A DNA stretch of 64,000 bases from Dehalococcoidia bacterium (GCA_050123275.1 JASFHK010000004.1:25577-89576), one strand, 5' to 3'; positions 30,823 through 61,278 are shown, counted from the first letter of the stretch. Notes: generated by a model from the sequence alone, not told the origin. Numbers and translations: made by a program.

Positions 30823-31251
30823 TTAGGTGTGCCTATGTTGAAATTTATACACCTGGGATTTTATACGGTTCACAACATCGTCAAGATTTTTGGCTATCTG
30901 AACGTCGGTGAACCTCATTACAGTGTATCCCATGTCTTCTAGCAAATGGGTGTTCCTCTTGTCCCTATCGACATTCTTTTGGATTTTTTGTTGCCAGTAG
31001 GGAGGCATTTTCAGTAACCGCTCAAGGGACAGCTTTTTGCCATGCCAGAAGGCACCATCTATAAAAACTATAACTTTTGCTCGTGTGAAGACAATATCAG
31101 GCCGTCCGGGAAGCGGCTTAAAGTCTTTGCGGTATCGTAGTCCATCGGCCCAGAGTTTCTTTCGAAGGGCAATTTCAGGGGCAGTGTCCTTGCTTTTTAT
31201 TCTGGACATTACCCAACTACGTTTTTCTGGTGGGTATGTGTCCTGAGTCAT
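30823..31251 (-). CDS. vsr: Very-short-patch repair endonuclease
   Basis: RSWVMSRIKSKDTAPE, LPGRPDIVF and FIDGAFWHG align with the E. coli Vsr motifs. Confidence 0.9.
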   Translation of the reverse strand: MTQDTYPPEKRSWVMSRIKSKDTAPEIALRKKLWADGLRYRKDFKPLPGRPDIVFTRAKVIVFIDGAFWHGKKLSLERLLKMPPYWQQKIQKNVDRDKRNTHLLEDMGYTVMRFTDVQIAKNLDDVVNRIKSQVYKFQHRHT

Positions 31252-31253
31252 AG

Positions 31254-32183: not shown

Positions 32184-33255
32184 GCGCCCTCCTTGCTAAG
32201 GGTAGCAGTAGGTGTTCTGTTAAAAATCGGGTGACGGGTAGGGCTACGGCGTCACCCATCGCATTGTAGCCGCTATTATAGTCACCGGGGATAGAATATG
32301 AATCGGGCAATCCCATTAATCTCGCTGCTTCCCGTACTGTTAATAAGCGTGTTTTTAATTCGCCATTAACTGAAATGACTATGAACTCGCGGCTACTTCC
32401 ACCATTAGCTGTCCTTAGGCAACCTGAAATATCGTCAGTGCGTATCTCAAGCACTTGTTTTTTCCCCCTGATGCGCTTGTATCCGGGGAATACCCGTAAC
32501 CCTTGCGTAAGAGCCTGCTTTAGCTTTGCCATGTGCTTAGGTGGTATCAATGCCAAGAGTTTCTTTGTTTGCTCACTTGTGTGAAGTGGAGCGTCGTATT
32601 CAATAACGTCGGATAGCTTTAGCGTTCGGGGTGGCGGCGTTTGCAGGCTCCACCAGATAACTTCTGTAAGACCATCTACCGCTCGTCTCAAAGCCTCAGG
32701 GTGTAGCCAATTTGGGGCGTCATCTGTTAAGCCATCCAAATTCACATCAGTTCTGACGCCTAAAACGAATATCCGTTTGCGTGATTGGGGGAGCCACCTT
32801 AGGGCGTCAAGCTGTAAAGGTCCTACTTGGTAATTACGTCCGGTCAATGCTTGGTGCAGAGTGCGGTAGTTATTGCCTCTGCTAGTTGAGGTTAGCCCTG
32901 AAACATTTTCTACCACAACTATCGGGGGGCGAGTAGGCATTTCATCCATTATCTTAAGCCAAGTCCATACCAAGCCGCTTCTATTCCCGTTTATACCTTG
33001 CTGCTTACCCGCTAGCGACAAATCCTGACATGGAAAACTAGCCCAGGAAACGTCTGCCTGCGGAAGGTTCTGCCCCGAGAAGTTCTGTAATGGCCCGAGG
33101 TAGAAAGAATATGGGTCTTGATTAGCCAAGTAAACTTCAGCTTTCTTTGGTGAGATGTCGTTAGCCCAAGCTGTATGGAAATAAGGTTTTACCCCTTCTG
33201 TAACTAGGCCGCTTCCTGCAAAAAAGTCTAGGAATTCATAAAGCTCAGGCGACAT
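32134..33255 (-). CDS. dcm: DNA (cytosine-5)-methyltransferase
   Basis: Motifs I FAGSG, IV SFPCQDLS, VI ENV, VIII QSRKR, IX REAARLMGLPDSY and X GDAV occur in canonical order. Confidence 0.92.
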   Translation of the reverse strand: MSPELYEFLDFFAGSGLVTEGVKPYFHTAWANDISPKKAEVYLANQDPYSFYLGPLQNFSGQNLPQADVSWASFPCQDLSLAGKQQGINGNRSGLVWTWLKIMDEMPTRPPIVVVENVSGLTSTSRGNNYRTLHQALTGRNYQVGPLQLDALRWLPQSRKRIFVLGVRTDVNLDGLTDDAPNWLHPEALRRAVDGLTEVIWWSLQTPPPRTLKLSDVIEYDAPLHTSEQTKKLLALIPPKHMAKLKQALTQGLRVFPGYKRIRGKKQVLEIRTDDISGCLRTANGGSSREFIVISVNGELKTRLLTVREAARLMGLPDSYSIPGDYNSGYNAMGDAVALPVTRFLTEHLLLPLARRAHADNPRVFTKIQEAIR

Positions 33256-33471
33256 AGGCTCTCACTCTCCGATGGTGTCCGTGTAATTATATCATATAAG
33301 TATTGGGGAAGGGTGCTAAACAAGAAAAACGGAAGTAATATTTTGCTAACCTTTTGCTAACGTATGAAAACAGACGGGGGTAATACGGCATCGTATTTAC
33401 GCAAAGTCACCACTATATTGACACTGAACGGAGCAAGTGATAACTTTGTTTGAGTCTGAAAGTAGGCTGAT

Positions 33472-39088: not shown

Positions 39089-39102
39089 TTCTATCATTTT
39101 TT

Positions 39103-39185
39103 GCTTCCCTCCGCTCGTATTACCGAGATCAGGTTCCAAGGGTTGGCGCCCCAGCGCCTCTCAGCCTTTTATAGCACCCCTAGCG
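39103..39185 (-). promoter_or_regulatory. TPP (THI-box) riboswitch
   Basis: Minus strand reads GGGGTGC..GCTGAGA..ACCCTTgGAACCTGATCtcgGTAATACgagCGGAGGGAA, matching the THI-box core element for element. Located upstream of thiC-thi4. Confidence 0.92.
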
Positions 39186-39247
39186 GAATTATTTAATTAA
39201 TCTCTGCATGAAAACTATAGCATAAAGGGAGGGTGCAAGGCAAAAAA

Positions 39248-46525: not shown

Positions 46526-47234
46526 AGAGGAACGACTGGTGGCCGAAGGCTACCGTCTCATCGCCGGCGTGGACGAGGTGGGGCGGGGGGCGCTGGCGGG
46601 CCCCGTGGTTGCCGCCGCCGTCATCCTGCCCGAGGCTCTGGATGCCTCCGATATGGAAGGGGTGGCCGACAGCAAGCAGCTGTCTCCCGCCGAGCGCGAG
46701 CGTCTCTTTATCCACATCCATAAGATTGCTCTTTCCGTAGGGGTGGGAGCGGTGCCGCACCACGTCATCGACGAGTGGGGCATCATCCGGGCCACCCGGC
46801 TGGCCATGAAACAGGCCGTCGAGCAGCTTTCCCCATCTCCCCAGTCGCTGCTCATCGACTATATGCAGCTCCCCGAGGTCAACCTCTACCAGCGGGGCAT
46901 CGCCCACGGCGACGACCTCTGTTTTTCCATCGCCTGCGCCTCGATTATCGCCAAGGTGACGCGGGACCGGCTTATGGTAGAATTCGACGGGGAATACCCC
47001 GGCTACGGGATGGCCCGGCACAAGGGCTACGGCACCCGCCAGCATATTGCCTGCCTGGCCGAGCTCGGCGTTTGCCCCATCCACCGCCGCAGCTTCCGCC
47101 CGGTGAGGGAGATGGTGCAGGGATTATTCAGGGAGTCGAATATTATACAGGAGGATACGGATGGACAAGAAGGAGATACTGGAGTTTTTGAACGCCAACC
47201 CCGTCTGTTACCTGGCTACGGTGGAGGGGAATAA
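46509..47234 (+). CDS. rnhB: Ribonuclease HII
   Basis: IAGVDEVGRGALAGPVVAAAV, DSKQLS and HRRSF. The about 25-aa tail overlaps the next gene by 74 nt. Confidence 0.9.
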   Translation: MPSFIEEERLVAEGYRLIAGVDEVGRGALAGPVVAAAVILPEALDASDMEGVADSKQLSPAERERLFIHIHKIALSVGVGAVPHHVIDEWGIIRATRLAMKQAVEQLSPSPQSLLIDYMQLPEVNLYQRGIAHGDDLCFSIACASIIAKVTRDRLMVEFDGEYPGYGMARHKGYGTRQHIACLAELGVCPIHRRSFRPVREMVQGLFRESNIIQEDTDGQEGDTGVFERQPRLLPGYGGGE

Positions 47235-47577
47235 GCCGCACGTGCGCGCCATCGGCATGTTTAGGGCCGACGAGGAAGGTATTATCATCCAGACCAACGA
47301 CTACAAGGATATGTACCGGCAGATAGAGGCAAACCCCAACACGGAGCTTTGTTTTTTCAACGCCAGGGACGGCGTCCAGATAAGGGTAAGCGGCGTTCTC
47401 GAGCCGTTTGACGATATAAAGCTGAAGGAAGAGATTATCGCCGAACGGACTTTCCTCAAGCCCTTCGTGGAGAAAGACGGCTACGGGGCGATAGTCGTTT
47501 ATCGCCTGAGCCGGGGCCAGGCTTACGTCTGGGGCTTCGGCACCCAGCAGGAACCCAAGAAATACGTTCAGCTTTAG
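47161..47577 (+). CDS. Pyridoxamine 5'-phosphate oxidase-like FMN-binding protein
   Basis: 138 aa. N-terminus ILEFLNANPVCYLATVEGNKPHVRAIGM is typical of the PNPOx-like split-barrel family. RBS caggagg. Confidence 0.72.
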   Translation: MDKKEILEFLNANPVCYLATVEGNKPHVRAIGMFRADEEGIIIQTNDYKDMYRQIEANPNTELCFFNARDGVQIRVSGVLEPFDDIKLKEEIIAERTFLKPFVEKDGYGAIVVYRLSRGQAYVWGFGTQQEPKKYVQL

Positions 47578-47578
47578 G

Positions 47579-47614
47579 GGAGATGGCTTCGTTACTTCGC
47601 TCCTCGCGATGACA
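47579..47614 (+). repeat. Repeat R2, diverged copy
   Basis: gagatggcttcgttacttcgctcctcgcgatgaca aligns with gagattgcttcgttgcgctcgcaatgaca at 51786-51813 and with gattgcttcgcttggctcgcaatgaca at 39337-39362. Confidence 0.6.
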
Positions 47615-47626
47615 ATATGATCGGGG

Positions 47627-47998
47627 GTGGCTATGAAGCGCCGGGACACGGGCATCCTGGGCGAAAAGCTGGCTAAAGATTACCTCAAGCGGCGGGGCTA
47701 CCGCATCCGTCAGACCAACTACCGTTGCCCCGAAGGCGAGATAGACATCGTCGCCGAGCGCAAAGACTGCCTGGTTTTCGTCGAGGTCAAGACGAGGCGG
47801 AGCCTAGAGTTCGGCAGCCCGGAGGAGTCGGTTACCGCCGGTAAGCGGGAGAAATTGAGGGCCGCCGCCGCCCGTTACCTACAGGCCTGTGACGGCCTGC
47901 CCCGGCTGTGGCGCATCGACGTTGTTGCCATAGAGCTCGGCCCCGATAACAAGCCCTCGCGCATCGAGCTTATCGAAAACGCCGTGGGCGAGGACTGA
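47627..47998 (+). CDS. yraN: YraN-family (UPF0102) endonuclease-like protein
   Basis: GE.AA..L...GY and GEIDIVAERKDCLVFVEVKTR form a PD-(D/E)XK core. Confidence 0.85.
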   Translation: MAMKRRDTGILGEKLAKDYLKRRGYRIRQTNYRCPEGEIDIVAERKDCLVFVEVKTRRSLEFGSPEESVTAGKREKLRAAAARYLQACDGLPRLWRIDVVAIELGPDNKPSRIELIENAVGED

Positions 47999-49095: not shown

Positions 49096-49745
49096 ACGGG
49101 CTAACCGATAATCTGGAACCCATCGCCGACAAAATCAGGGAGGAGCTGACGGCCAAGGACGCCGCCCGCGAAAAGATATTGCCCCGCTGCCGCGACGCCA
49201 TCAGGCATTGCAGCCGGGCCATCCGCGCCGTCCACCGCCAGGAGTTCGACAAAGCCCGTGAGCTGCTCAACGGGGCGCGCGGTCTTCTCAGTGAGGCCGA
49301 AGTCGCTTCCACCGACCACAGCGAGCTGGGCTATACCGGCTTCGCCCGCGACGCCCAGAAAGAGTTCGCCGAGGGCAGCATTACGCTGGCGCTGGTGACG
49401 GGGAAGCCGATGCCGACGCCCGAAGAGCTGGGCGTGGAAGCCGTCTCTTACCTGAAGGGGATGGGAGAGGCCGTCGGCGAATTACGGCGTTACCTGCTCG
49501 ACAGCATGAGGCACGGCGACCTTTCCAAGGGGGAGGGGTTGCTCACGGCCATGGATGACATCTACAACACGCTGGTGACCATGGACTTCCCCGACGCCAT
49601 CACCGGGGGCCTGCGCCATACCACCGACATGGTACGCGGCGTGCTGGAGAGGACGCGCAGCGACCTGACGCTGGCTATAGGGCAGCAGGGGGTGGCGGAC
49701 AAGCTGGACAGGCTCTTCCAGAAAAAAGAAGGGAGAGACGGCTAG
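49092..49745 (+). CDS. Translin-family-like protein (tentative)
   Basis: 217-aa all-helical protein. The pattern RE.IL..CRDAIR.C..AIRAVHR.EF..A ... GEAVGELRRY recalls translin/TRAX. Assigned from memory of the family pattern only. Confidence 0.5.
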   Translation: MNGLTDNLEPIADKIREELTAKDAAREKILPRCRDAIRHCSRAIRAVHRQEFDKARELLNGARGLLSEAEVASTDHSELGYTGFARDAQKEFAEGSITLALVTGKPMPTPEELGVEAVSYLKGMGEAVGELRRYLLDSMRHGDLSKGEGLLTAMDDIYNTLVTMDFPDAITGGLRHTTDMVRGVLERTRSDLTLAIGQQGVADKLDRLFQKKEGRDG

Positions 49746-49775
49746 ACCATCTCTCCCCGTTTTAGCCTTTTTATA
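49721..49775. terminator. Bidirectional intrinsic terminator between convergent genes
   Basis: GGGAGAGA (49731-49738), 11-nt loop, TCTCTCCC (49750-49757). On the plus strand it is followed by cgTTTTagccTTTTT. On the minus strand it is followed by TTCTTTTTTC. Confidence 0.6.
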
Positions 49776-49778: not shown

Positions 49779-50393
49779 CTATTTCAGGTTCGGTTTGTCT
49801 TTCTTAACGAAGTGAACCGAAGCGTAGCGGCAGAGCCGTTCTTTGCCCGGCAGCTGCTTGAGCCGGTTGACCTCGTCCTCGCCGATGACGGATATGGTGC
49901 CGAAGCGGTCCTGTACGTCCTGAGCGAAGGCGCAGTGGTCGCATTCGTAGTTGCGGTCGCAGAGACGGTAGGAAACGGCGCCCAGCTCCAGCCAGACGTG
50001 TTTCTTGGCCTCTTCCTGCTCGGCTTCGCTCAATGCCAGGGCGATTGACTTCTCCAGGTCTTCGACGCGGAAGGGTTTTATCAGATAGTCGAGCAACCCC
50101 AGCCTTTGGGCCTTGTCCCGGGTTTCCTTGGAGGGGTAGGCGGTAATGATGACCCCTTTTGCCTTGGGGTCGTGCTCCCTGGCGTGCTCGAAGACCTGCA
50201 GGCCGTCTATTCCCGGCAGCTTGAGGTCGAGAACGATGGCCCCGAAGGCCTCTTTTTCGATTCTCTTCAGCGCCTCCTCGCCGCTGGCGACGACATCTAC
50301 GTCGTAGCCGTCTTCGACCAGCCAGTCCCGCACGCTTTCCCTGACCACAGCCTCATCTTCGACGATAAGGATTTTCCTCTTTTGAGCGGCCAT
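49779..50393 (-). CDS. Response-regulator receiver + uncharacterised Cys module (C-x5-C-x2-C-x33-C)
   Basis: Receiver KILIVEDE..VLDLKLPGIDG..ITAY. The C-terminal 70 aa are HVWLELGAVSYRLCDRNYECDHCAFAQD...LPGKERLCRY. Confidence 0.8.
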   Translation of the reverse strand: MAAQKRKILIVEDEAVVRESVRDWLVEDGYDVDVVASGEEALKRIEKEAFGAIVLDLKLPGIDGLQVFEHAREHDPKAKGVIITAYPSKETRDKAQRLGLLDYLIKPFRVEDLEKSIALALSEAEQEEAKKHVWLELGAVSYRLCDRNYECDHCAFAQDVQDRFGTISVIGEDEVNRLKQLPGKERLCRYASVHFVKKDKPNLK

Positions 50394-50404
50394 TTTTCCC
50401 TCCT

Positions 50405-50448
50405 AAAAACAAGGGGTATGCTTATGCCTGATGTATAGCATACCCCTT
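50405..50448 (-). terminator. Intrinsic terminator between the two receiver genes
   Basis: 12-bp stem AAGGGGTATGCT/AGCATACCCCTT (50411-50422 / 50437-50448) with a 14-nt loop. On the minus strand it is followed by GTTTTTA, then the RBS AGGAGGG of the next gene. Confidence 0.6.
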
Positions 50449-50469
50449 GACTGCTGTCAATAACTTTTT

Positions 50470-51480
50470 TCACCGTTTGGCTTTAGCCATTTTTTCCTTT
50501 TTGCGTAGCGCCTCGCGCCGCGCCTGGAGCTTGGCCAGTTTTTGCTGGGTGTAGTCTTCCATGAGCTGGCCGAACTCGCAGCTGGCGCAGGTAAAGAGGT
50601 TGGAGCAGACGCGGTGGGAGACATCGCCCTTGAGGGTGTAGCGGCAAAGGCGCTGGCTGCCCGGTAGCTCCTTGAATTTCTCGGCGATTTCGTCCATCTG
50701 GGGGACGTTACCGCTGGCCATCAGCTCCTGCATCTCCTGGTCGAAGGCGCAGCTCAGGCAATCGTAGTCGCGCGTACAGAGACGGTAGGGAACCAGCCCC
50801 ATCTTCATCCAGAGGCACTGCCTGGGCTTTATCGGGGTAGCGGCTGTATCGGGTTTGACCTCGGGCTCGGCCATGGCTACCTTGGCTTTTCTTATCCAGA
50901 CCCTGGCTTCTATGTTGCCCGGGGCGACGACCAGAATAGCCTGCAGCTCTCTCAGCGCCTCGGCGTAGCGGCCGGCTTCGAAGTGAGCCTTGCCCTTCTT
51001 GAGGTAGACCGGAATCTCTTCCGGGGCGATGGTTACCGGCTCGATAACCTCTTTCTCCTCGATTACGGGCGGCTCGACCTTGGCTTCTGGCGGCTTTTGC
51101 TTGGGCTCAATCTTGACCTGGACGGGGCCCAGCGTCTTGCGGAGCAGCGATTCCATCTCGTCGAGCTTAAAGGGCTTGGACAGGTAGTCGATGGCGCCCA
51201 CCTTCATCGCCTCTACGGCCGTATCCACCGAAGGGTAGGCGGTGATGATGATGCCGTTTATCTTCGGGTTCTTCTGCCTGGCTTCCCGGAGCACCTCGAG
51301 CCCGTTCTTGCCGGGCAGTTTCATGTCGAGGATGAGCAGGCTGAACTCGCGCTCTTTCATCGACTTGAGCGCCGCTTCGCCGTGCTCGGCGGTCTCGACC
51401 AGGTAGCCTTCATCGTGGAGCCAGTCGCGCAGGGATTCCCTCATGATGGTTTCGTCTTCTACAATCAGTATCGGTTCCAT
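50470..51480 (-). CDS. Response-regulator receiver + TPR-like linker + extended Cys module (two C-x5-C-x2-C motifs)
   Basis: Receiver ILIVEDE..ILDMKLPGKNG..ITAY and a helical AEALRELQAIL segment. The C-terminus is CLWMKMGLVPYRLCTRDYDCLSCAFDQE...LPGSQRLCRY...VCSNLFTCASC. The likely start is MEPILIV at 51480; the ORF track extends to 51555. Confidence 0.8.
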   Translation of the reverse strand: MEPILIVEDETIMRESLRDWLHDEGYLVETAEHGEAALKSMKEREFSLLILDMKLPGKNGLEVLREARQKNPKINGIIITAYPSVDTAVEAMKVGAIDYLSKPFKLDEMESLLRKTLGPVQVKIEPKQKPPEAKVEPPVIEEKEVIEPVTIAPEEIPVYLKKGKAHFEAGRYAEALRELQAILVVAPGNIEARVWIRKAKVAMAEPEVKPDTAATPIKPRQCLWMKMGLVPYRLCTRDYDCLSCAFDQEMQELMASGNVPQMDEIAEKFKELPGSQRLCRYTLKGDVSHRVCSNLFTCASCEFGQLMEDYTQQKLAKLQARREALRKKEKMAKAKR

Positions 51481-51544
51481 TTTGTTGCCTCCTTGGCTTT
51501 GTTGTCTACCCTCTATACATGCAATTTTCTTGCCAAAGGAGGTT

Positions 51545-51850
51545 TTGCTTCCCACCCAATACCCACCCTACAGAGGTGTTACCTCTATATACTTCTCTTG
51601 TCGCCGCCCCACCCTGATTTTATCTATTCTCGCCTGTCACCCTTTAAGGTAAAGAGGGGCTCTGCCCCTCTTAAACACCACGTGTGAATTGGGGGATTCG
51701 AAGAGGGGACATATAAGGGGTTCCACCCTTATAGGGAGGGTTTTGGGTGGGAAAGAAAAACGTGCGCTGACAGGGTTATGGCTTTGAGATTGCTTCGTTG
51801 CGCTCGCAATGACAGTACGCGTGAAGCGCGCTCGCAATGACTGTGAAGTA
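51545..51850. repeat. Mosaic of repeats R1 (forward + inverted), R3 (inverted) and R2 (x2), filling a whole intergenic region
   Basis: R1 forward lies at 51548-51615 and R3 inverted at 51640-51679. R1 inverted lies at 51725-51785 (ggtgggaaagaaaaacgtgcgctgacagg). R2 lies at 51786-51813, with a partial second unit at 51818-51843. cttcccacccaatacccaccc (51548) is near-perfectly inverted at 51736-51762. Confidence 0.8.
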
Positions 51851-51863
51851 AAAAGGGAGCAGA

Positions 51864-53246
51864 CTAGCGCTTGCTGTCTACTTTCTTTACGCTTTTCGAG
51901 TTCCTGGCGTTAAGCCCGTAGGCCTTGGCTTTGTTGTAGAGCGTCATCCGCGAGATACCGAGCACTTTAGCCGCCTCGGTATAGTTGCCGCCGGTCTCGG
52001 CGAGCACTTCCTCGATGTGGCTTCTCTCCATCTCCTTGAGGTTCCGCGTCTTGGAGACGGCGTGATAGGGCTCTACGTTATTGGGGGAGATGTCGGTGAC
52101 ATCTATCTGGGTGCCCTTGGCCAGTATCACCGCCCTTTCCACCGCGTTTTCCAGCTCCCTTACGTTGCCGGGCCACTCGTATCTCATCATAAAAGCGTTG
52201 GCCTCGGAGGAAAAGCTGTTGATTTCCTTGCTGTTCTCGGTGGCGAACTTTTTGAGGAAGTACTGTGCCAGCAGGGGAATGTCCTCTTTTCTTTCCCGGA
52301 GCGAGGGTATTTCGATATTGACCACGTTCAAGCGGTAGTAGAGGTCCTCACGGAACTTGCCTTCGGCGATAGCCTTTTTCATGTCGCGGTTGGTCGCCGA
52401 GATGACCCTGACGTCCACCTTGATAAGCTCGTTGCCGCCGACGCGGGCGAACTCCTTTTCCTCAAGGACGCGGAGGAGGTGCACCTGGATATTGGAGCTC
52501 ATCTCGCCGATTTCGTCGAGGAAAAGGGTGCCGCGGTTGGCCGCCTCGAATTTGCCCTGCTTGCGGGCGTAGGCCCCGGTGAAGGCGCCTTTCTCGTGGC
52601 CGAAAAGCTCACTTTCGAGCAGGCTTTCGGGCAGAGCGGCGCAGCTCACGGCGATGAAAGGCTTGTCGGAGCGCAGGCTCTGGGCGTGAATGGCCTGGGC
52701 CACCAGTTCCTTGCCCGTGCCGGTCTCGCCGGTGATGAGCACGGTGGCGTTGCTCTTGCTGACCACCTTGATAATCTCGATTACCTGCTGCATGCGGGTG
52801 CTCTTGGCGATGATGTTTTCGAAGCGGAATCGCTTTTCCAGCTTCTGGTGCAGGGCGATGTTCTCTTCGATAAGCCCCTGGCGCTCGACAAGCTTTTCGA
52901 TGAGCAGCTCGGCTCTCTCCGGGCAGAAGGGCTTTTCTATGTAATCGTAGGCGCCTTCCCTCATGGCGGAGATGGCGGTGGGGATACTGCCGTAGGCGGT
53001 GATGATGATGACCGAGATGTCGGGGTCTATTTTCTTGACGGCTTTCATCAGGGCGATGCCGTCCATGCCCGGCATGACCAAATCGGTGATAACGATGCCG
53101 GGTTTCTCCATGCGTATAATTTTAAGCGCGGCTTCGCCGCTTTCGGCGGTGAGCACGTCGTGCCCCACGTCTTTCAGCCAGTCGCGGAGAGAGTCGCGGA
53201 CGATAGCTTCGTCGTCAATTACCAGAATCTTTACTTTTTTCTTCAT
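51864..53246 (-). CDS. Sigma-54-dependent two-component response regulator (NtrC family)
   Basis: Receiver (VITDLVMPGMDG), AAA+ domain with GETGTGKE, the sigma-54 contact loop EKGAFTGA and FLDEIGE, and a C-terminal Fis-type HTH AAKVLGISRMTLYNK. Confidence 0.92.
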   Translation of the reverse strand: MKKKVKILVIDDEAIVRDSLRDWLKDVGHDVLTAESGEAALKIIRMEKPGIVITDLVMPGMDGIALMKAVKKIDPDISVIIITAYGSIPTAISAMREGAYDYIEKPFCPERAELLIEKLVERQGLIEENIALHQKLEKRFRFENIIAKSTRMQQVIEIIKVVSKSNATVLITGETGTGKELVAQAIHAQSLRSDKPFIAVSCAALPESLLESELFGHEKGAFTGAYARKQGKFEAANRGTLFLDEIGEMSSNIQVHLLRVLEEKEFARVGGNELIKVDVRVISATNRDMKKAIAEGKFREDLYYRLNVVNIEIPSLRERKEDIPLLAQYFLKKFATENSKEINSFSSEANAFMMRYEWPGNVRELENAVERAVILAKGTQIDVTDISPNNVEPYHAVSKTRNLKEMERSHIEEVLAETGGNYTEAAKVLGISRMTLYNKAKAYGLNARNSKSVKKVDSKR

Positions 53247-55179
53247 GGCGCAGTGGTAGCGAGATGGTGAAAGTGCTACCCTTTCCTTCCTTGCTTTGCA
53301 CTTCGATTTTGCCCTGGTGGCGCTGGATGATGCCGTAGGCCACTGCCAGCCCCAGGCCTACCCCTTTACCCTTGCCCTTGGTGGTGAAAAAGGGGGTAAA
53401 AAGCTTGAGCTTGTCTTCCTCGGAGATGCCGTGCCCCGTGTCCTGTACCTCTATGTGGAGGTAGCTGCTGTCCGCCGAGGTGCGCACCGTGAGCACGCCG
53501 CCGTCGGGCATGGCCTGGATGGCGTTCATCACCAGGTTGGTGCATACCTGCTGGAGCTGGTCGAAGTCGGCCATGACGTTGGGCAGTTTGGGGTCGAGTC
53601 CCTTGGTTACCTCTATCCTTTGCAGCTCGGCGGAGTGGCCGGCCATGTCGAGGACGCGCTCGACCACCTCGTTGGCGTTTATCTCCCTGAGGCTGGGCTT
53701 TGACTGGCGGGCGAAGTCGAGCAGATTGCGAATCAGCTTGGTGCTGCGGGTAAGCTCGGTTTCCATTTTATTGAGATAGTCGGCGGCGGTATCCTTGGCG
53801 ATGCCGTCGCCGGCCAGTTTCTTGGCTAAAAGCTGGGTGTAGACCAGGACGCCCGCCAGCGGGTTGTTAACCTCGTGGGCGATGGAAGCCGCCATCTGCC
53901 CCAGTGAGGTCAACTTTTCCGCCTGGATTAGGTCCTGCTGGGTGTCCTTGAGGCGGCTGAGCACGTAGGGCCAGCACATGTCGGCCTCGGCCAGGTTCTG
54001 GCAGACGGCTGTCGCCAGCTCGCGGCAGGTCTCGTAGCCGCAGGCGCCGCAGTTTATCTGGTCGTTGGGGTCGGCTTTGCCCAGCTGCTTGAGCACGGCG
54101 TTGATATCCTGCTCGCTGGGGGTGGGCAGGCCGACGCTGCGGGTGGTGAAACGGCGGCTCAGGTCAATATCGGCGTATTCCTTGAGGTCTTTCTCGGCCT
54201 GGGCGGGGTCGGCCTGGCTCCGGGCGTAATCGATGAGGCGCTCCTTGCGCCGGAAGCCGCTCAAGTCGTTATCGATAACGGGCCCGTCGATACAGCCGTG
54301 GCAGAAGTGCAGGTTAATGAGACGGGTATCGATGTCGCCCTTGGCGAACTCGCGCAGTATCTTGGTCACGTATTCCTTACCGTGGGCGTTTATGGTCTCG
54401 TTTTTAATGATGTCGTCGGGCAGTTGCGCCGCCCGGAAAAGCCCCTTGGAGAGGGGGAAGAGCCGCCCCAGGTCGGATTTGGGACCGGAAAAGGCCTCTT
54501 CCTCTTCTTTTTCGGGGACGATTTTTTTGGCGGCGAACATCTCTTTAAGTTCGGCGAAGGTGAGCACGGCGTCGATAACGCCGGATACCTTTTCATCCTT
54601 GCTTTCCGCCTTCTTGGCCACGCAGGGGCCGATGAAGACCACCTTGGCCTTGGGGTTGTATTTCCATTTTATCAATCTACCCATGGCTATCATCGGCGAA
54701 ACGATGGGGGCCAGGTTGCCGATGAGCTGAGGGTAATACTTTTCGATGTAGGTCACCGCCGCCGGGCAGTTGGTGGAGAGTACGGGCTTGCCGGTGTACT
54801 TGGTAAAGAAGCGCGTGTATTCGCGGGCGATAAGCTCGGCGCCGAAAGCGTCTTCCATGACCTCGCTGAAGCCCAGCTTCTTGATGCCGGCCACCAGCTG
54901 GCCGGCCTTGCAACCGAGCAGGGCGGCGGGGAAGGATGAGGAAAGAACGGCGATAACGTTATCGGGGTTATCGGACAGCAGCTGCCAGGTGACGCCGATG
55001 TCGCTTTCCACCTGTTTCGCCTTGGGCACGCAGACCCGCAGGCACTTGCCGCAGACGATACAGCGTTCCTTAATTACCTGAGCCAGGCCGTCTTCGACCT
55101 TTATCGCCTTGCAGGGGCAGCCGCGGATACAGGCGTAACAGCGCTTGCATTTTTCCTTGTCGGTATAGACGATGCTCAT
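53215..55179 (-). CDS. Histidine kinase with ferredoxin + [FeFe]-hydrogenase-like + Fe-S-cluster sensor region
   Basis: N-terminal CKRCYACIRGCP / CIVCGKCLRVC. Hydrogenase-large-subunit-like motifs STNCPAAV, IGPCVAKKAE and HFCHGCIDGP, followed by CGACGYETCRELATAVC. HisKA SIAHEVNNPL and HATPase motifs N (LVMNAIQAM), G1 (DTGHGI) and G2 (GVGLGLAV). Confidence 0.85.
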   Translation of the reverse strand: MSIVYTDKEKCKRCYACIRGCPCKAIKVEDGLAQVIKERCIVCGKCLRVCVPKAKQVESDIGVTWQLLSDNPDNVIAVLSSSFPAALLGCKAGQLVAGIKKLGFSEVMEDAFGAELIAREYTRFFTKYTGKPVLSTNCPAAVTYIEKYYPQLIGNLAPIVSPMIAMGRLIKWKYNPKAKVVFIGPCVAKKAESKDEKVSGVIDAVLTFAELKEMFAAKKIVPEKEEEEAFSGPKSDLGRLFPLSKGLFRAAQLPDDIIKNETINAHGKEYVTKILREFAKGDIDTRLINLHFCHGCIDGPVIDNDLSGFRRKERLIDYARSQADPAQAEKDLKEYADIDLSRRFTTRSVGLPTPSEQDINAVLKQLGKADPNDQINCGACGYETCRELATAVCQNLAEADMCWPYVLSRLKDTQQDLIQAEKLTSLGQMAASIAHEVNNPLAGVLVYTQLLAKKLAGDGIAKDTAADYLNKMETELTRSTKLIRNLLDFARQSKPSLREINANEVVERVLDMAGHSAELQRIEVTKGLDPKLPNVMADFDQLQQVCTNLVMNAIQAMPDGGVLTVRTSADSSYLHIEVQDTGHGISEEDKLKLFTPFFTTKGKGKGVGLGLAVAYGIIQRHQGKIEVQSKEGKGSTFTISLPLRHEEKSKDSGN

Positions 55180-55180
55180 T

Positions 55181-56281
55181 TCAGCTCCTTGCTCTCACCG
55201 CCGGCTTGGTCTTGCCGCGGGACGACGGAATTTTCAGCTCTTGCCTGAGGTGCGCCACCGAGCGCCGCGAAATGGAAACGCCGAATTTCTCCTGTAATCT
55301 TGCTCTTATTGCCTCGTCGGAGTCAAGCCCGCTTTCGCTGTCGAGGAGCTGCTTGAGCAGCTCTTTCTTGAAGCGGCGGGGGCGGGGGAAAAAGTCGCTC
55401 AAGGGGACCTCTTTGCCCTGGGGGGTTTCCAGGCTCTTGCCCCTGACAGCGCGGCTTATCGAGCTGGGCGCCAACCCTATCTTTTCGGCCAGCTCTTTCC
55501 GGGTGAAGGGCAGCAGGGCTTTGGCTTCGCCGGAATCGAGGTAGAGAGCCTGGCGCTCGATAACGCCCTGTATGATGCGGCTGACCGTGTCCTGGCGGGT
55601 GTTAATCAGCTCCAGCTGGGCCAGCAGCTTTTTGGCTTTTTTAAGTTCGCTGGAGCTTAGGGCGCCGTCCGCCTTGAGCCGCTCGAGTCTCTCGTAGTCA
55701 ATCTCGTATTTACCCCGCGCCAGCGCCGGCGAGAAATAGCCGATAACGAAGCCCTCACGCCGCTTTTCCAGCGAAGCCACCTTGGCATAACGCATTACGT
55801 CGGGGTTGAGGGTGGAGGGATGATAAAACTCGCTCTGGATGGAAAAATCGTTAATCAGCTCGTTTATCTCTTGCACCTCGTCCGGCTTCAGGCCGCACTC
55901 GGCGGCGATTCGCTCGGGAGCCATGCCCGTTTCGGGGAAGAGGAAATGGCGCTTGAAGTTCTCCAGCCCCATCTTCCTTATGTGCTCCACGATTTGCCGC
56001 TTGTTGAGCAGCAATGATTCTATATCCAGCGAGCCGCTGTCGGCGGCGATGTCTTCTTTAAGCTGGTAAAAGCGGGGGGAAATGTCGGTCCCGGGCAGAC
56101 GCTGGCGGCGGATGAGTTTCTCCTCGCCGTAGAGCTTCCGAAAGAGGGGAGAGCGCTCTATCTCGACGATGAGCCGACGGAACTCGTCCTCGGGCATCTC
56201 GAGTAGTGTAGCCTGCTCCATGCGTAGCACCTGGCTGAGACGCTGTTGCATCTCCATGGATTGCTGCTGTTTTGCCGCCAT
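55181..56281 (-). CDS. rpoN: Compact RNA polymerase sigma-54 homologue (366 aa)
   Basis: Region I-like MEMQQRLSQVLRMEQATLLEMPEDEFRRLIVEIERSPLF. C-terminal half collinear with sigma-54: TRQDTVSRIIQGVIERQALYL, HTH LLPFTRKELAEKIGLAPSSISRAVRGKSLETPQG..LSDFF, and RpoN-box-like ISRRSVAHLRQELKIPSS. Confidence 0.72.
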   Translation of the reverse strand: MAAKQQQSMEMQQRLSQVLRMEQATLLEMPEDEFRRLIVEIERSPLFRKLYGEEKLIRRQRLPGTDISPRFYQLKEDIAADSGSLDIESLLLNKRQIVEHIRKMGLENFKRHFLFPETGMAPERIAAECGLKPDEVQEINELINDFSIQSEFYHPSTLNPDVMRYAKVASLEKRREGFVIGYFSPALARGKYEIDYERLERLKADGALSSSELKKAKKLLAQLELINTRQDTVSRIIQGVIERQALYLDSGEAKALLPFTRKELAEKIGLAPSSISRAVRGKSLETPQGKEVPLSDFFPRPRRFKKELLKQLLDSESGLDSDEAIRARLQEKFGVSISRRSVAHLRQELKIPSSRGKTKPAVRARS

Positions 56282-56383
56282 TTTTCTGTAAAAAAATTTT
56301 ACTACGCACTTGAAAAATTGTCAAGAAAGTTAACAAAAGGCAAATGTAAAACATCTTGACCGTAAAATCGGCATGTGTTAAGA

Positions 56384-56399
56384 TGGCAGCAGTGTAGCT
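56384..56399 (+). promoter_or_regulatory. Candidate sigma-54 (-24/-12) promoter of hdrL-hdrC-hdrB
   Basis: TGGCAG-cagtg-TAGCT has GG and GC at the canonical 10-nt spacing of TGGCAC-N5-TTGCW. It lies about 53 nt upstream of the GTG at 56452. It overlaps a sigma-70-like TTGACC-17-TAAGAT (56356-56384). Confidence 0.4.
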
Positions 56400-56451
56400 G
56401 TGACCCCTTACCCCCCCTCTCTTGGACCAATTAAGGAGAATAGGAGGCAAC

Positions 56452-59400
56452 GTGGAACCTAAGATTGGCGTATACATCTGTCATTGTGGGACTAACATTG
56501 CCGGGACGGTGGATGTGGGGGCGGTTACCGAGTTCGCCCGTACCTTGCCCGCGGTAGCCATTGCCCGGGATTACACCTATATGTGTTCCGACCCGGGGCA
56601 GGACCTTATCCGCCAGGATATCAAAGAACTGGGGCTTAATCGCATCGTGGTGGCTTCCTGTTCGCCGCTGATGCACGAACGGACCTACCGTCGGGTATGC
56701 CAGGAATCGGGCCTTAACCCCTATCTCTTCGAAATGGCCAATATCCGCGAGCACGTTTCCTGGATAACCGAGGACAAGGCGGCGGCTACCGAGAAAGCCA
56801 AAGCCCTGGTCAGCGCCGCCGTCAGGCGCGTTTACTACCAGGAGCCGCTGGAAACCAGAGAGGTCCCGGTTAACCCCAACACGCTGGTGGTGGGGGGTGG
56901 TGTGGCCGGCATCCAGGCCGCCCTGGAGATTGCCGATTCCAAACACAAAGTATATCTGGTGGAGAAGGAGCCCAGCGTCGGCGGGCACATGATACAGCTG
57001 GACAAGACCTTCCCCACTCTGGACTGTTCCGCCTGTATTCTGACCCCCAAGATGAGCCTGGTCGGCGCCCATCCCTATATCGAGCTGATGTCCTACAGCG
57101 AGGTGACCGGTGTCGAGGGCTACGTGGGTAACTTCAAGGTTCAGATAAACAAGAAAGCCCGCTACGTTGATGTTGATAAATGCACCGGCTGCGGCGAGTG
57201 TTCCCAGGTCTGCCCGGTTACGGTGCCTAACGAGTTCGACCTGGGCTTGGGCAACCGCAAGGCGATTTATCGCCCCTTCCCCCAGGCGGTACCCAACGCC
57301 TTTACCATAGACAAGAAGGGCTATCCGCCCTGCCGCGTCGCCTGCCCGGCAGGGGTTAACGCCCAGGGCTACGTCGCCCTTATCTCGCAGGGCAAGTTCA
57401 AGGAAGCCCTCGAGGTATTGCGGCGGACGATGCCCTTTGCCGGCGTTTGCGGCCGCGTTTGCACCCACCCCTGCGAGAGGGACTGCGAGCGGGGCAAGGT
57501 GGACGAGCCGGTTTCCATCCGCGCGCTGAAGCGCTTCATGGCCGACTACGAGTTGAGTGTGGGGCGAGAAAAGGCGGCGCCGGTGGAGAGGACTAAAGAA
57601 GACAAGGTAGCCGTCATCGGCTCGGGCCCGGCCGGGCTTGCCTGCGCCTACGACTTAATCCGGGAGGGCTACCCGGTTACCGTTTTCGAGGCCGCGCCCA
57701 AGACGGGCGGGCTGCTCCGCTACGGCATCCCCGAATACCGTCTGCCTGATAAGGTGCTGGATAACGAGGTCGGCTACCTGGAGGAGATGGGCATCGAGAT
57801 AAAGACCGGCCACGCCGTGAGGAAGTTCGAGGAGCTCTTCAACCAGGGCTACCAGGCGATATTCATGGCGGCGGGGGCGGGGGTAAGCCAGAAGATGGGC
57901 ATCCCCGACGAGGACGCCGAAGGCGCCCTGCACGCCCTCGATTTCCTGAACAAGGTTAACTCCGGCAAGAAGGTCAGCCTCGGCGAGAAAGTGGCCGTTA
58001 TCGGCGGCGGTAACGCCGCCATAGACTCGGCGCGGGTCGCCAGGCGGCTGGGCGTCAAGGAAGTTTCCATCGTCTATCGCCGTTCGCGCGAGGAAATGCC
58101 CGCCGTCAGCGACGAGATTAACGAGGCCGAGCGGGAAGGCATCAAGTTGCACATACTGGCGGCGCCGGCCAAGGTCATCGCCGAGGATGGCAAGGTGACC
58201 GGCCTCCAGTGCATCAAGATGGAGCTGGGCGAGCCCGACGCCAGCCGGCGCCGGCGCCCGATACCGGTTGAAGGCTCCGAGTTCGAGATGGAGGTGGACA
58301 ACGTCATCTTCGCCGTGGGGCAGGGAGTGAACAAGGAAGCGCTGCCCGGCGAGCTGGAGTACACGGGGTGGGGTACCGTGGTCGTTGACCCCGCCACCCT
58401 CCAGACCAACATCGAGGGCGTTTTCGCCGGCGGGGACGTGGTTTCGGGCCCCTCCGACGTTATCGCCGCCGTCGCCGCGGGCAAGGAAGCCGCGATGTCC
58501 ATCGACCGTTTCCTGCGGGGAGTCGACCTCAAAGAGGGTCGCCCCGTTCCCATAACCAAAGCCACGGATATCCCCAAGGAGGACGTCCAGGCCAAGCTGC
58601 GGCAGGAGATGCCCACCCTGGACGTCAGCAAGCGGCAGGGCTTCGCCGAAGTCGAACTGGGCCTGGACGAGAAGACGGCCATGGAGGAGGCCAAGCGCTG
58701 CCTGAACTGCGGCGTTTGCTCGGAATGTATGGAGTGCCTCAAAGCCTGCCAGGTCGGGGCCATCAACCAGGATATGATCGAGGAGACCATCGAGGTCGAT
58801 GTGGGCAACATCATCGTCGCCACCGGCTACGATACCTTCGACCCCACCCCTCTCTACCAGTACGGCTACGGGCGGCTGGATAACGTCCTTACCTCGCTGG
58901 AGTTCGAGAGGATGATTAACGCCTCGGGCCCCACGTCGGGCGACGTGCTGCTCAAGGACGGCTCCCATCCCAAGACGGTGGGTATCATCCACTGCGTGGG
59001 CAGCCGCGACGAGAACTATCACGAGTACTGCTCGCAGGTCTGCTGCATGTACTCGATGAAACTAAGCCACCTGATAAGAGACCACGTGCCCGGCTCTCAG
59101 GTCTACGAGTTCTATATCGACCTGCGCTGCGTGGGTAAAGCTTTCGAGGAGTTTTACAACCGCGTCCTCGACGAGGGGACCATGTTCATCCGCGGGCGCC
59201 CCGGCGAGGTGACCGATATCGCCGAGACTCCCGAAGAAGAGGGCAAGCTCATCATCGTCGGCGAGGACACCCTGGTCGGACGCCAGCGCCGCGTGCCGGT
59301 GGACATGGTGGTGCTGAGCACGGCCTTGCAACCCCAGCCGGACGCCGATAAGGTCGCCCACCTCTTCTCCATCAGCCGCAGCGCCGACGGCTTCTTCCTG

Positions 59401-59793
59401 GAGAAGCATCCCAAGCTCGACCCTGTGGCCACCATGAGCGACGGTATTTTCGTCGTCGGCTGCTGCCAGTCGCCCAAGGATATTCCCAACAGCGTGGCAC
59501 AGGCGTCGGCGGCGGCGGCCAGGGCGCTGGCGATGATTAGCGCCGGCTCCATAGAAATCGAAGCGGCTACCTCCGAGGTTGACCCCGAGCTTTGCTCCGG
59601 CTGTAAGACTTGCTCCGATCTTTGCCCCTTCCACGCCATATCATTTGACGAAGAGAAGAAGATAAGTATAATAAATGAGACGCTATGCAAGGGCTGCGGC
59701 GTTTGCGTCGCCGCCTGCCCCAGCGGCGCCATCAAGGGCAAGCACTTTACCGCCGACGAGCTTTTGGCCGAGATAGAAGGGGCGCTGGTATAA
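56452..59793 (+). CDS. hdrL: HdrA-like flavoprotein with inserted GltD/NfnB-type NAD(P)H:FAD module (HdrL-type)
   Basis: N-terminus KIGVYICHCGTNIAG and FAD fold VVGGGVAGIQAAL. The insertion carries PFAGVCGRVCTHPCERDCERG, VIGSGPAGLACAYDL, VIGGGNAAIDSARVA and FAGGDVV. The HdrA signature CVGSRDENYHEYCSQVCC and four ferredoxin-type Cys motifs are present. GTG start behind AGGAGAATAGGAGG; the ORF track begins 30 nt earlier. Confidence 0.85.
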   Translation: MEPKIGVYICHCGTNIAGTVDVGAVTEFARTLPAVAIARDYTYMCSDPGQDLIRQDIKELGLNRIVVASCSPLMHERTYRRVCQESGLNPYLFEMANIREHVSWITEDKAAATEKAKALVSAAVRRVYYQEPLETREVPVNPNTLVVGGGVAGIQAALEIADSKHKVYLVEKEPSVGGHMIQLDKTFPTLDCSACILTPKMSLVGAHPYIELMSYSEVTGVEGYVGNFKVQINKKARYVDVDKCTGCGECSQVCPVTVPNEFDLGLGNRKAIYRPFPQAVPNAFTIDKKGYPPCRVACPAGVNAQGYVALISQGKFKEALEVLRRTMPFAGVCGRVCTHPCERDCERGKVDEPVSIRALKRFMADYELSVGREKAAPVERTKEDKVAVIGSGPAGLACAYDLIREGYPVTVFEAAPKTGGLLRYGIPEYRLPDKVLDNEVGYLEEMGIEIKTGHAVRKFEELFNQGYQAIFMAAGAGVSQKMGIPDEDAEGALHALDFLNKVNSGKKVSLGEKVAVIGGGNAAIDSARVARRLGVKEVSIVYRRSREEMPAVSDEINEAEREGIKLHILAAPAKVIAEDGKVTGLQCIKMELGEPDASRRRRPIPVEGSEFEMEVDNVIFAVGQGVNKEALPGELEYTGWGTVVVDPATLQTNIEGVFAGGDVVSGPSDVIAAVAAGKEAAMSIDRFLRGVDLKEGRPVPITKATDIPKEDVQAKLRQEMPTLDVSKRQGFAEVELGLDEKTAMEEAKRCLNCGVCSECMECLKACQVGAINQDMIEETIEVDVGNIIVATGYDTFDPTPLYQYGYGRLDNVLTSLEFERMINASGPTSGDVLLKDGSHPKTVGIIHCVGSRDENYHEYCSQVCCMYSMKLSHLIRDHVPGSQVYEFYIDLRCVGKAFEEFYNRVLDEGTMFIRGRPGEVTDIAETPEEEGKLIIVGEDTLVGRQRRVPVDMVVLSTALQPQPDADKVAHLFSISRSADGFFLEKHPKLDPVATMSDGIFVVGCCQSPKDIPNSVAQASAAAARALAMISAGSIEIEAATSEVDPELCSGCKTCSDLCPFHAISFDEEKKISIINETLCKGCGVCVAACPSGAIKGKHFTADELLAEIEGALV

Positions 59794-59830
59794 GCCGGCC
59801 CCGTTAACCTTAAATAAAGGAGGAGTCTAA

Positions 59831-60412
59831 ATGGCTGACACGGTGGTCAAAACTCCTCCCGCCGTAGTGACGGACTTTCTTAACGAGGTCTGCTCCATAC
59901 CCGGCGGCGAGGCGATTAATTCTTGTATTCAATGCGGGGTGTGTACCGGCTCCTGTCCCACCGCCAACCAGTGGGACTACCCGCCGCGGCGGGTCATCGC
60001 CATGGTGCGGGCCGGTTTGAGGGACGAGTTACTGTCGAGCAACTCGATGTGGTTCTGCGTTTCCTGCTACACCTGCACGGTGCGCTGCCCGCGGGATATC
60101 AAGCCCGCCGATATCATGCACGCTCTGGAGATTATCTCTCTCCGCAGCGGCAAGAGCACCCGCCGCAACCGCACGCCGATTATGTACCAGTGCTTCGTCG
60201 ATTCCGCCCGTAAATACGGCCGGGTCTACGAGATGGGAATGATGATTAATCTTTTCATGAAGACCAACCCCTTCTCCGCCCTCAAGCTGGCGCCGTTGGG
60301 GATGGGGCTGTTTTTCCACAAACGCATGCCCCTGAGCCCCGAACGAATCAAGGGCATGGACGGCCTCAAAGCCATCCTCAAGAAAGCCAGGGAACTGGGA
60401 GGTGCCGAATAA
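59831..60412 (+). CDS. hdrC: Heterodisulfide reductase subunit C-like (2x[4Fe-4S])
   Basis: CIQCGVCTGSCP and CVSCYTCTVRCP, 193 aa. Confidence 0.85.
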   Translation: MADTVVKTPPAVVTDFLNEVCSIPGGEAINSCIQCGVCTGSCPTANQWDYPPRRVIAMVRAGLRDELLSSNSMWFCVSCYTCTVRCPRDIKPADIMHALEIISLRSGKSTRRNRTPIMYQCFVDSARKYGRVYEMGMMINLFMKTNPFSALKLAPLGMGLFFHKRMPLSPERIKGMDGLKAILKKARELGGAE

Positions 60413-61278
60413 TGAAACACTACACATACTATCCCGGTTGTTCGGCGGAGGCAACGGCGTCGCCCCTGGGCATCTCGGTGCCCCCGGTGGCCAAGAAGCT
60501 GGAGATGGACCTTAACGAGCTTGAGGACTGGAACTGCTGTGGCTCGACGCCTTTCTGGTCGGTGGACAAGCTGGAGGCGGCGGCATTGGCCAGCCGCAAC
60601 CTGGCTCTGGCCGAAAAGCGGGGCTTCGACCTGGTGACGCCCTGCTCCAACTGCTTCGTCATCCTGCACGAGACCAATAACCACCTCAAGAGGCTGCCCG
60701 ATTTCAAGGACAAGGTGGACCAGGCGCTGGCGGCGGGCAAGATGAAATATAACGGCACCGTCAACGTGCGCCACCTCGCCGAGGTGCTCTACACCGATAT
60801 TACCCCCGAAGGCATCGCCGAAAAGGTAACCAAGCCCTTAAAGGGTCTCAAGGTGGGCGCTTACTACGGCTGCCAGCTGGTGCGCCCCGACGGCTTCGAC
60901 GACCCCGAATCCCCCCACTCGCTGGACGAGATAATCACCGCGCTGGGCGCCGAGGCCGTTGACTGGGAGATGAAGGCCCGCTGCTGCGGCAGCTCGCTGG
61001 TCATGCCCGAACAGGAAGTGGCGCTGGGGCTGGTCAACAAGCTGCTCCGCAACGCCACCGAGCACGGGGCCGAGTGCCTGATTACTCCCTGCCCATTGTG
61101 CCAGATTAACCTCGACGCCTATCAGAGCCTGGTTAACAGCCAGTTCAAAACGCGCTATAATATACCCGTACTTTTTGTTACCCAACTGATAGGGGTCGCG
61201 CTGGGTATTCCCGCCAACGAGCTGGCTTTATCGGGTAATATCGTCTCTCCGATGAAGGTGTTAGCCCCCTATCTCTAG
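60412..61278 (+). CDS. hdrB: Heterodisulfide reductase subunit B-like (two CCG domains)
   Basis: WNCCGST ... TPCSNCF and ARCCGSS ... TPCPLCQ. 1-nt overlap with the hdrC stop. Confidence 0.88.
   Translation: MKHYTYYPGCSAEATASPLGISVPPVAKKLEMDLNELEDWNCCGSTPFWSVDKLEAAALASRNLALAEKRGFDLVTPCSNCFVILHETNNHLKRLPDFKDKVDQALAAGKMKYNGTVNVRHLAEVLYTDITPEGIAEKVTKPLKGLKVGAYYGCQLVRPDGFDDPESPHSLDEIITALGAEAVDWEMKARCCGSSLVMPEQEVALGLVNKLLRNATEHGAECLITPCPLCQINLDAYQSLVNSQFKTRYNIPVLFVTQLIGVALGIPANELALSGNIVSPMKVLAPYL

Follow-up and report, generated by a model that had tools for sequence, protein, structure and literature searches.

Control by sigma-54 (RpoN) combined with a two-component system is itself known, and several described systems come close to the locus considered here, which lies in a 64 kb stretch (the window) of a metagenome-assembled genome from a Dehalococcoidia bacterium (JASFHK010000004.1:25577-89576). 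The locus encodes an unusually short sigma-54-like factor, a histidine kinase with a hydrogenase-like sensor, an NtrC-class activator and two Cys-rich receiver proteins, RR2cys and RR1cys, with hdrL-hdrC-hdrB divergent beside them; its regulatory part is called the cassette below. Canonical RpoN systems with NtrB/NtrC-type regulators (AtoS/AtoC and ZraS/ZraR are the best NCBIfam matches) have in common with the cassette a GAFTGA-containing AAA+ activator with REC and HTH_8 domains, a HisKA kinase gene just upstream, a TGGCA-N6-TTGCA promoter, an RpoN box and a -12 helix-turn-helix (HTH). Unlike canonical RpoN, the cassette sigma has ~360 amino acids (aa), lacks a Pfam-detectable activator-interacting or core-binding domain and is the first gene in the operon of its kinase and only visible activator, and the target promoter lies immediately past the terminator of the sigma operon. 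In Rhodobacter sphaeroides, rpoN paralogues sit in the nif and fla clusters served by them, so that a sigma-54 gene is likewise embedded in, and dedicated to, one gene cluster and activator; these RpoNs are full-length and exist alongside other copies, whereas the cassette sigma belongs to a divergent short lineage (Dehalococcoidia, Elusimicrobiota, Omnitrophota, Aerophobetes). The H2-sensing HoxBC-HoxJ-HoxA system of Cupriavidus necator (cf. HydDB class 2b) has the same logic, with a hydrogenase-like sensor, a histidine kinase, an NtrC-type regulator and sigma-54-dependent redox enzymes. Its sensor is a separate [NiFe] regulatory hydrogenase, whereas the cassette has an [FeFe]-type H-domain fused to the kinase, and receiver-Cys proteins and Hdr-/NuoEF-like modules as putative targets. 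The novelty lies in the short cassette-borne sigma, the hydrogenase-like kinase and the receiver-tagged redox outputs.

The locus probably forms a regulatory cassette with two tiers that responds to redox state or H2 and is centred on a dedicated sigma-54-type factor of unusually short length. Eight genes were checked by listing of open reading frames (ORFs) and by Pfam and NCBIfam profile searches, which bore out the genes and domain assignments of a first-pass annotation. On the minus strand, the gene of the sigma-like factor (366 aa, 55181..56281) stops 1 nucleotide (nt) ahead of the ATG of the kinase gene (654 aa, 53215..55179), which overlaps the activator gene (460 aa, 51864..53246) by 32 nt. 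These genes follow a sigma-70-type promoter, TTGACA-17-TAAAAT (56296..56324, minus strand), matching the consensus at 11 of 12 positions. Beyond the activator gene come the -24/-12 sigma-54 promoter TGGCAAGAAAATTGCA (51520..51535, minus strand), ~40 nt upstream of the RR2cys start codon, and the genes for RR2cys (50470..51480, minus strand; 336 aa from its true start, ATG 51480, behind AAGGAGG) and RR1cys (49779..50393, minus strand; 204 aa). A terminator-like hairpin with a 13 bp stem and a T-run (49730..49758, minus strand) closes the RR2cys-RR1cys unit. Sigma, sensor, activator and target promoter together span ~5 kb.

A scan of all 64 kb for canonical -24/-12 elements picked up TTGGCAAGAAAATTGCA at 51520-51535, between the activator and RR2cys genes, and no other; it had been overlooked in the first-pass annotation. 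Comparison was made with 44 species-level genome loci, nearly all labelled Dehalococcoidia or Dehalococcoidales, of which 37 have enough downstream sequence. An equivalent element follows the activator gene in 36 of these 37, and over 698 kb (window plus loci) strict matches numbered 41 where 2.5 were expected, and the syntenic site accounts for 33 of the 41. Positions outside the search pattern are near-invariant too (T at -1 and 0, C and A after GG, AA before TTGC). The sigma-54 target in the window would thus be the Cys-rich receiver operon RR2cys-RR1cys. In most loci a hairpin and T-run stand immediately ahead of the -24/-12 element; compensatory changes in the stems, together with the T-runs, mark them as terminators of the sigma-kinase-activator operon, and on the same grounds they were rejected as activator binding sites. 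In one locus (L021, 14470-14620) a promoter relic, TTGGCAGAAGAATTAC, with its -12 element destroyed, is followed by a frame-broken Cys-rich fragment behind ntrC (a pseudogene), and an intact promoter and Cys-rich gene are relocated upstream of the sigma gene, which could there be under its own sigma-54 promoter.

Synteny extends to the genes themselves. The activator gene follows the sigma gene in 36 of the 37 loci, with a kinase gene in between in 35; the kinase is of the hydrogenase-like type in 27 and membrane-anchored, with a nearly identical kinase core, in 11 (both occur in 3 loci). The proposal of a locus equipped with a sigma-54-type factor, a sensor kinase and an enhancer-binding protein of its own is thus supported, and the three form a conserved unit. 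The association of the short sigma with a GAFTGA-type activator and a GG-N10-GC element, seen at 36/37 loci, recurs in four distant contexts: an NtrC-type activator gene adjoins or lies near the short sigma gene in five of six such contexts, and in four (L047, L050, L052, L053) TGGCA-N6-TTGC stands in the spacer just past the activator gene. In L050, a 36%-identical relative, the element directly precedes hdrC-hdrB-hdrA-mvhD. That sigma, (kinase), activator, terminator, promoter and target recur in this arrangement argues most strongly for a working dedicated sigma-54-type factor. In L052 (8542-12776) and L053 (9400-13125) the sigma/activator pair and -24/-12 element precede B12-binding radical-SAM and ketoacyl-synthase genes, so that the same cassette design appears attached to quite different target operons.

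Downstream of the promoter, the run RR2cys-RR1cys of the window recurs in 8 other loci, with RR1cys syntenic behind RR2cys. The runs RR2cys-HdrD-HdrL-MvhD and RR2cys-HdrD-HdrA-MvhD have the sigma-54 promoter directly ahead in at least 7 Dehalococcoidia loci, RR2cys-NuoE-NuoF-(REC-NuoG-like) and REC-NuoE-NuoF-(REC-NuoG-like) also stand behind such a promoter, and a further type consists of REC-GltD-like proteins with two [4Fe-4S] motifs. At the family level the regulon would therefore consist of flavin/Fe-S electron-transfer modules and receiver-tagged redox proteins. REC is fused to modules resembling the N-terminal part of NuoG (Fer2_4 and Fer4_Nqo3), NuoE ([2Fe-2S] thioredoxin-like) and GltD/NfnB (Fer4_20, Pyr_redox_2 and 2x[4Fe-4S]). 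Such fusions are encoded at L016 18119-19120, L020 4513-5517 and L007 15808-18003, with equivalents in L017, L019, L026, L029, L031 and L036, all within operons that are sigma-54-dependent by promoter sequence. No description of receiver-NuoE/NuoG fusions was found in the literature searched.

The only Pfam match of the short sigma is Sigma54_DBD (77.6 bits; cutoff 22.8), and its score with NCBIfam TIGR02395 (rpoN_sigma) is 91.8 bits against a cutoff of 277. It can be divided into a region-I-like N-terminus, a helical middle of ~110 aa, a beta-hairpin, a long helix, the HTH and the RpoN box, with detectable sigma-54 homology confined to the C-terminal half (residues ~157-359). Sigma-54 is the only relative named by each of the other methods: a PDB profile search matched sigma-54 chains over residues 157-356, hhalign aligned residues 174-359 to E. 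coli RpoN 281-475, pairing STISR with SSISR and ARRTVAKYR with SRRSVAHLR, and sigma-54 made up all of the top 24 structural matches of Foldseek, which bears out an overall likeness to sigma-54 and no more. The DNA-reading parts are retained, the HTH fitting xSSVSRAI...TPxG...PLKxFF and the RpoN box ISRRSVAxLR, which agrees with the canonical promoter found. Residues 1-62 align co-linearly but weakly to RpoN 1-61 (hhalign, P=0.008, 24% identity), LLEMPEDEF..IEIERSPLF being paired with LLQLSTLEL..ALESNPLLE. Residues 60-175 are predicted to be helical and have the size of a core-binding domain, at low model confidence.

A homologue search returned >600 relatives, all of 350-390 aa and 55-86% identical, and an exhaustive hidden Markov model search yielded, at E<1e-30, 258 clusters (50% identity), which almost without exception are ~360 aa long and match over their full length. 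Named members come from Omnitrophota, Elusimicrobiota and Aerophobetes and are all annotated as hypothetical. The genes of the family usually adjoin an activator gene. Neither a canonical rpoN nor a second activator or second sigma-54 gene was found in the window or in the ~700 kb of related loci, barring a paralogue in L004 (1053-2402, minus strand). This 449-aa protein, encoded divergently from the short sigma gene, has Sigma54_DBD alone (36 bits) and a C-terminal GIY-YIG-like segment. Within this phylum an older survey saw sigma-54 in no more than "some Chloroflexi" (PMC3162934), and a recent one demands all three Pfam domains at strict thresholds (PMC12316311), so that the short-sigma family would escape its detection. 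The literature searched held nothing on sigma-54 in Dehalococcoidia or on short RpoN-like proteins.

The kinase is built from a 2x[4Fe-4S] ferredoxin part, an H-domain-like region, a Cx2Cx4Cx16C motif, HisKA and HATPase_c (Pfam: Fer4, Fe_hyd_lg_C at 167 bits, the PF04060 FeS module, HisKA and HATPase_c). Aligned to solved [FeFe]-hydrogenases, it retains the four H-cluster Cys positions (TNCP, GPCVAKKAE, CHGC), and has N in place of the proton-relay C299 and G in place of M353. The Cx2Cx4Cx16C motif reads CGACGYETCRELATAVCQNLAEADMC. This motif and the H-cluster Cys motifs are kept in 28 of 29 kinase orthologues, and two CxxCxxCxxxC motifs in 27 of them. Cx2Cx4Cx16C is a described motif of group C/D putative sensory [FeFe]-hydrogenases, and M353G has been reported for TmHydS (PMC8163306); HydDB also holds a putative "histidine kinase-linked" class C1 (PMC5037454). 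The window kinase is like TmHydS (group C), TamHydS (group D) and HydDB C1 (PMC8163306, PMC5037454) in the N-terminal 2x[4Fe-4S], the four-Cys H-domain, the loss of Cys299 and Cx2Cx4Cx16C, and like TmHydS in the replacement of M353 by G. Unlike putative sensory [FeFe]-hydrogenases, it has no PAS domain by Pfam, HisKA/HATPase_c being joined straight to the FeS module, and its H-domain is shortened between motifs 2 and 3, motif 3 being C-x2-C rather than C-x3-C. It scores under the TIGR04105 cutoff, and its likeness to class C1 is drawn from features, not phylogeny. The kinase sensor thus resembles putative sensory [FeFe]-hydrogenases, with H2 reactivity and a [2Fe] subcluster being putative.

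The activator has the NtrC-class composition of REC (102 bits), an AAA+ domain with GAFTGA (Sigma54_activat, 252 bits), AAA_lid_14 and a Fis-type HTH (HTH_8); its best NCBIfam match is AtoC, at 504 bits and under the cutoff. The window encodes no other activator, and there is likewise one per related locus. The sigma-54 contact loop in 39 activator orthologues (L001-L043) reads GSFTGA in 28 and GAFTGA in 10, the window protein among the latter. RR2cys consists of REC, TPR and two copies of a Cys-rich unit (YRxC-x5-C-x2-C-xF-xQ, LPGxQRLCRY), and RR1cys of REC and one copy, the Cys-rich C-terminus being common to both. The unit is also found as the input domain of a histidine kinase. It belongs to no Pfam family, and the only homologues that a search brought up were short proteins without annotation, many being fragments. 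Both receivers, and the receiver domains encoded in the other types of downstream run, share with the REC of the activator the alpha1 motif (E/D)DEAI(M/V)RESLRDWL. As alpha1 plays a known role in kinase-regulator pairing, the common motif suggests that a single kinase may feed all receivers that carry it.

From conserved promoter and domain sequences the following order of events may be proposed. The sigma-70-type promoter would express sigma, kinase and activator as one translationally coupled operon. The kinase would sense H2 or the cellular redox state through its hydrogenase-like domain and Fe-S clusters and phosphorylate the NtrC-type activator. The activated enhancer-binding protein would remodel the RNA polymerase carrying the short sigma at the -24/-12 element, turning on the RR2cys-RR1cys operon; in other genomes an equivalent promoter would switch on RR2cys together with Hdr- or NuoEF-type modules. 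The induced receivers, sharing RESLRDWL with the activator REC, would probably be phosphorylated by the same kinase, and with their Cys-rich (metal or Fe-S) domains may dock to flavin-based electron-transfer complexes, HdrL-HdrC-HdrB for instance, or modulate them. This last step is speculative, because the Cys-rich domain is without known relatives and its AlphaFold model is poor (predicted local distance difference test, pLDDT, 59).

These two features of the Cys-rich domain weigh against the cassette as proposed, and so do several others. All function is inferred from sequence, in uncultured genomes. No activator binding site was identified upstream of the -24/-12 promoter, and near it no conserved dyad separable from coding conservation was seen apart from the terminator hairpins. 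No hydE/F/G was found among the scanned window proteins, several ORFs between ~36 and 47 kb lying outside the scan. For the short sigma, neither the Pfam activator-interacting domain (AID, PF00309) nor the core-binding domain (CBD, PF04963) has a match in the first ~170 aa of the 65 diverse members scanned (absent in 65/65; E<=0.01), PF04963 having no match in the window sigma even at E<=10, and residues 60-175 have no hhalign similarity to E. coli RpoN 1-300, which includes the core-binding region; core binding and activator dependence are accordingly putative. The AlphaFold model of the sigma is mediocre (pLDDT 60, from a 20-sequence alignment), its N-terminal half being too uncertain to decide from the model on the presence of a core-binding fold.

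The 366-aa protein might accordingly be no sigma factor but a DNA-binding regulator that has kept, of sigma-54, just the half that binds DNA. It could, for instance, sit at -24/-12 sites as a repressor or compete there like an anti-sigma factor, with a canonical RpoN encoded elsewhere performing transcription. Besides the missing AID and CBD matches and the lack of similarity over residues 60-175, the TIGR02395 score far under the cutoff speaks for this explanation, and the L004 paralogue with its GIY-YIG-like segment shows that the sigma-54 DNA-binding domain is reusable. It is nevertheless considered unlikely. Short-sigma genes almost always stand beside a GAFTGA/GSFTGA activator gene with a -24/-12 element right behind it, and do so in several phyla; the N-terminus aligns, if weakly, in co-linear fashion to region I; the middle is helical and of core-binding-domain size; and the ~700 kb of related loci yielded no canonical rpoN. 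In one Elusimicrobiota genome, moreover, an ABC-transporter ATPase gene is found three genes upstream of the short sigma gene, loosely like lptB-rpoN of E. coli, the ATPase being at most a candidate LptB.

If the short protein is a sigma factor, a broader proposal can be put forward, tentatively and with less confidence than the cassette itself. The ~360-aa proteins might be an unrecognised enhancer-dependent sigma lineage whose region I is minimal and whose core-binding part departs from the canonical one. Such a lineage would have been missed by domain-based surveys, and would be moving among several phyla, most of them uncultured (Dehalococcoidia, Elusimicrobiota, Omnitrophota, Aerophobetes), in self-contained cassettes of sigma, (kinase), activator, terminator and promoter. 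In Dehalococcoidia this lineage might have been wired to an H2/redox-sensing [FeFe]-hydrogenase-like kinase and to receivers fused to Fe-S/flavin subunits (NuoE-, NuoG- and GltD-like, and the new Cys-rich module), amounting to phosphorylation-gated control of flavin-based bifurcating complexes.

The Cys-rich receivers could also act at the level of transcription, as second-tier DNA-binding factors for hdrLCB and other sigma-70 promoters, which would make the system a transcriptional cascade in place of post-translational control. A cascade would fit three observations: direct expression of the receivers from the sigma-54 promoter is conserved, RR2cys is modelled with a long basic helix at its end (AlphaFold, pLDDT 59), and the hdrL spacers contain conserved blocks outside the promoters. 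However, no recognisable DNA-binding fold is present in the receivers, paralogous RECs at the same operon position are fused to NuoE-, NuoG- and GltD-like modules, which points to a redox or protein-partner role, and the Cys unit doubles as an input domain of a histidine kinase. A cascade is for these reasons regarded as improbable, and modulation of electron-transfer complexes by the receivers is preferred.

HdrL, in which HdrA is fused with a glutamate-synthase-type NAD(P)H module, was defined in Desulfobacterium autotrophicum (PMC2702500). In the window, HdrL (56452..59793, plus strand) consists of HdrA into which a GltD/NfnB-like NAD(P)H:FAD module is inserted, and matches HdrA2 in two stretches (855 bits) and PRK12771 (557 bits, over the cutoff); it most likely starts at GTG 56452, behind GGAGG and 170 nt from the divergent sigma gene. 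It is followed on the same strand by an HdrC-like 2x[4Fe-4S] subunit (59831..60412) and an HdrB-like subunit with two CCG domains (60412..61278). As in D. autotrophicum HdrL (PMC2702500) and the Flx/Mvh-HdrABC bifurcating complexes, an HdrA-NAD(P)H fusion stands beside HdrC/HdrB CCG subunits; the window copy is without an accompanying MvhD gene, the HdrD-HdrL-MvhD version being found in other Dehalococcoidia. All three proteins have the domains of their respective Hdr subunits, and all equivalog scores lie under the methanogen Hdr cutoffs, for which reason they are labelled 'Hdr-like' and CoM-S-S-CoB reductase activity is not implied.

The first-pass annotation had placed a sigma-54-type element, TGGCAG-N5-TAGCT, ahead of hdrL, and had suggested alignment of orthologous upstream regions for GG-N10-GC. 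The motif is there (56384..56399, plus strand), but it is judged a chance match outside the system. Its -12 element is off consensus (TAGCT as against TTGCW), and for the relaxed pattern TGGCA-N6-TNGCW chance alone predicts 1.19 occurrences per window, two having been found. In the closest relative (L046, sigma 86% identical) the invariant GG of the motif reads AG, and nothing similar occurs in L001, L002, L003, L006 or L014, which have the same divergent arrangement. In the alignment the GG is thus lost and the sigma-70-type elements are kept: CTTGACC-17-ATGnTAAnAT toward hdrL, which in the window is the promoter TTGACC-17-(TG)TTAAGAT (56356..56384, plus strand) overlapping the motif, and TTGACA-17-TAAAAT toward the sigma operon are both invariant in six orthologous spacers. 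On this six-spacer alignment and the chance estimate, transcription of hdrLCB from the 56384-56399 element was rejected. That the adjacent activator drives hdrL-hdrC-hdrB from this motif, the divergent genes being a direct regulator-target pair, is consequently very improbable, even though the motif is spaced as GG-N10-GC, occupies the spacer beside the regulator operon 53 nt ahead of the hdrL start, is one of just two relaxed matches in the window, and resembles in its setting the Hdr operons that in other family members are, by promoter position, direct sigma-54 targets. The window hdrLCB would be transcribed from its own conserved sigma-70-type promoter, its tie to the cassette being conserved neighbourhood. 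Redox/H2-gated control of NAD(P)H-linked Hdr-like machinery, as first suggested for these genes, is therefore supported by promoter position at the family level, where the promoter stands ahead of Hdr operons, but not for the window hdrLCB. Four genomes (L001, L003, L006 and L014) share a conserved block, CCTTTTGATATAGTCTGCRCCG, ~40-70 nt before the start codon in the hdrL 5' leader; the block, which the window and L046 lack, could be an operator or leader element.

Should the short protein function as a sigma factor, it would illustrate the small size that an enhancer-dependent sigma can have, and, being without a recognisable core-binding domain, it would help to separate the essential parts of sigma-54. 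Sigma-54-type regulation would also be extended to lineages missed by surveys that require three Pfam domains (PMC12316311). The compactness of ~5 kb makes the cassette attractive as an orthogonal expression module. Its link to Hdr-/NuoEF-type modules and the receiver-fused redox subunits offer a testable entry to the regulation of electron bifurcation by H2 or redox state in uncultured subsurface Dehalococcoidia.

The genes around the system in the window are housekeeping genes and a small low-GC island, and no member of the system was found among the scanned proteins of these surroundings. The island (30500-33300; GC 0.49-0.50 vs ~0.60) adjoins two tRNA genes (30521-30709), encodes a DUF4928 protein and a C5 cytosine DNA methylase, and is probably an acquired restriction-modification module. 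A thiamine pyrophosphate (TPP) riboswitch (Rfam RF00059, 74 bits) is present at 39089-39191 on the minus strand, upstream of a 431-aa gene. The spacer between ntrC and RR2cys is ~330 nt long in the window, as against 36-241 nt (~90 nt in most) elsewhere, because of a direct repeat, GTCATTGCGAGCGC, at 51790-51850 (minus strand), which has the look of a repetitive extragenic palindromic (REP) element; possibly the same repeat, judged by eye only, is read through in a spurious ORF at 47143-47655.

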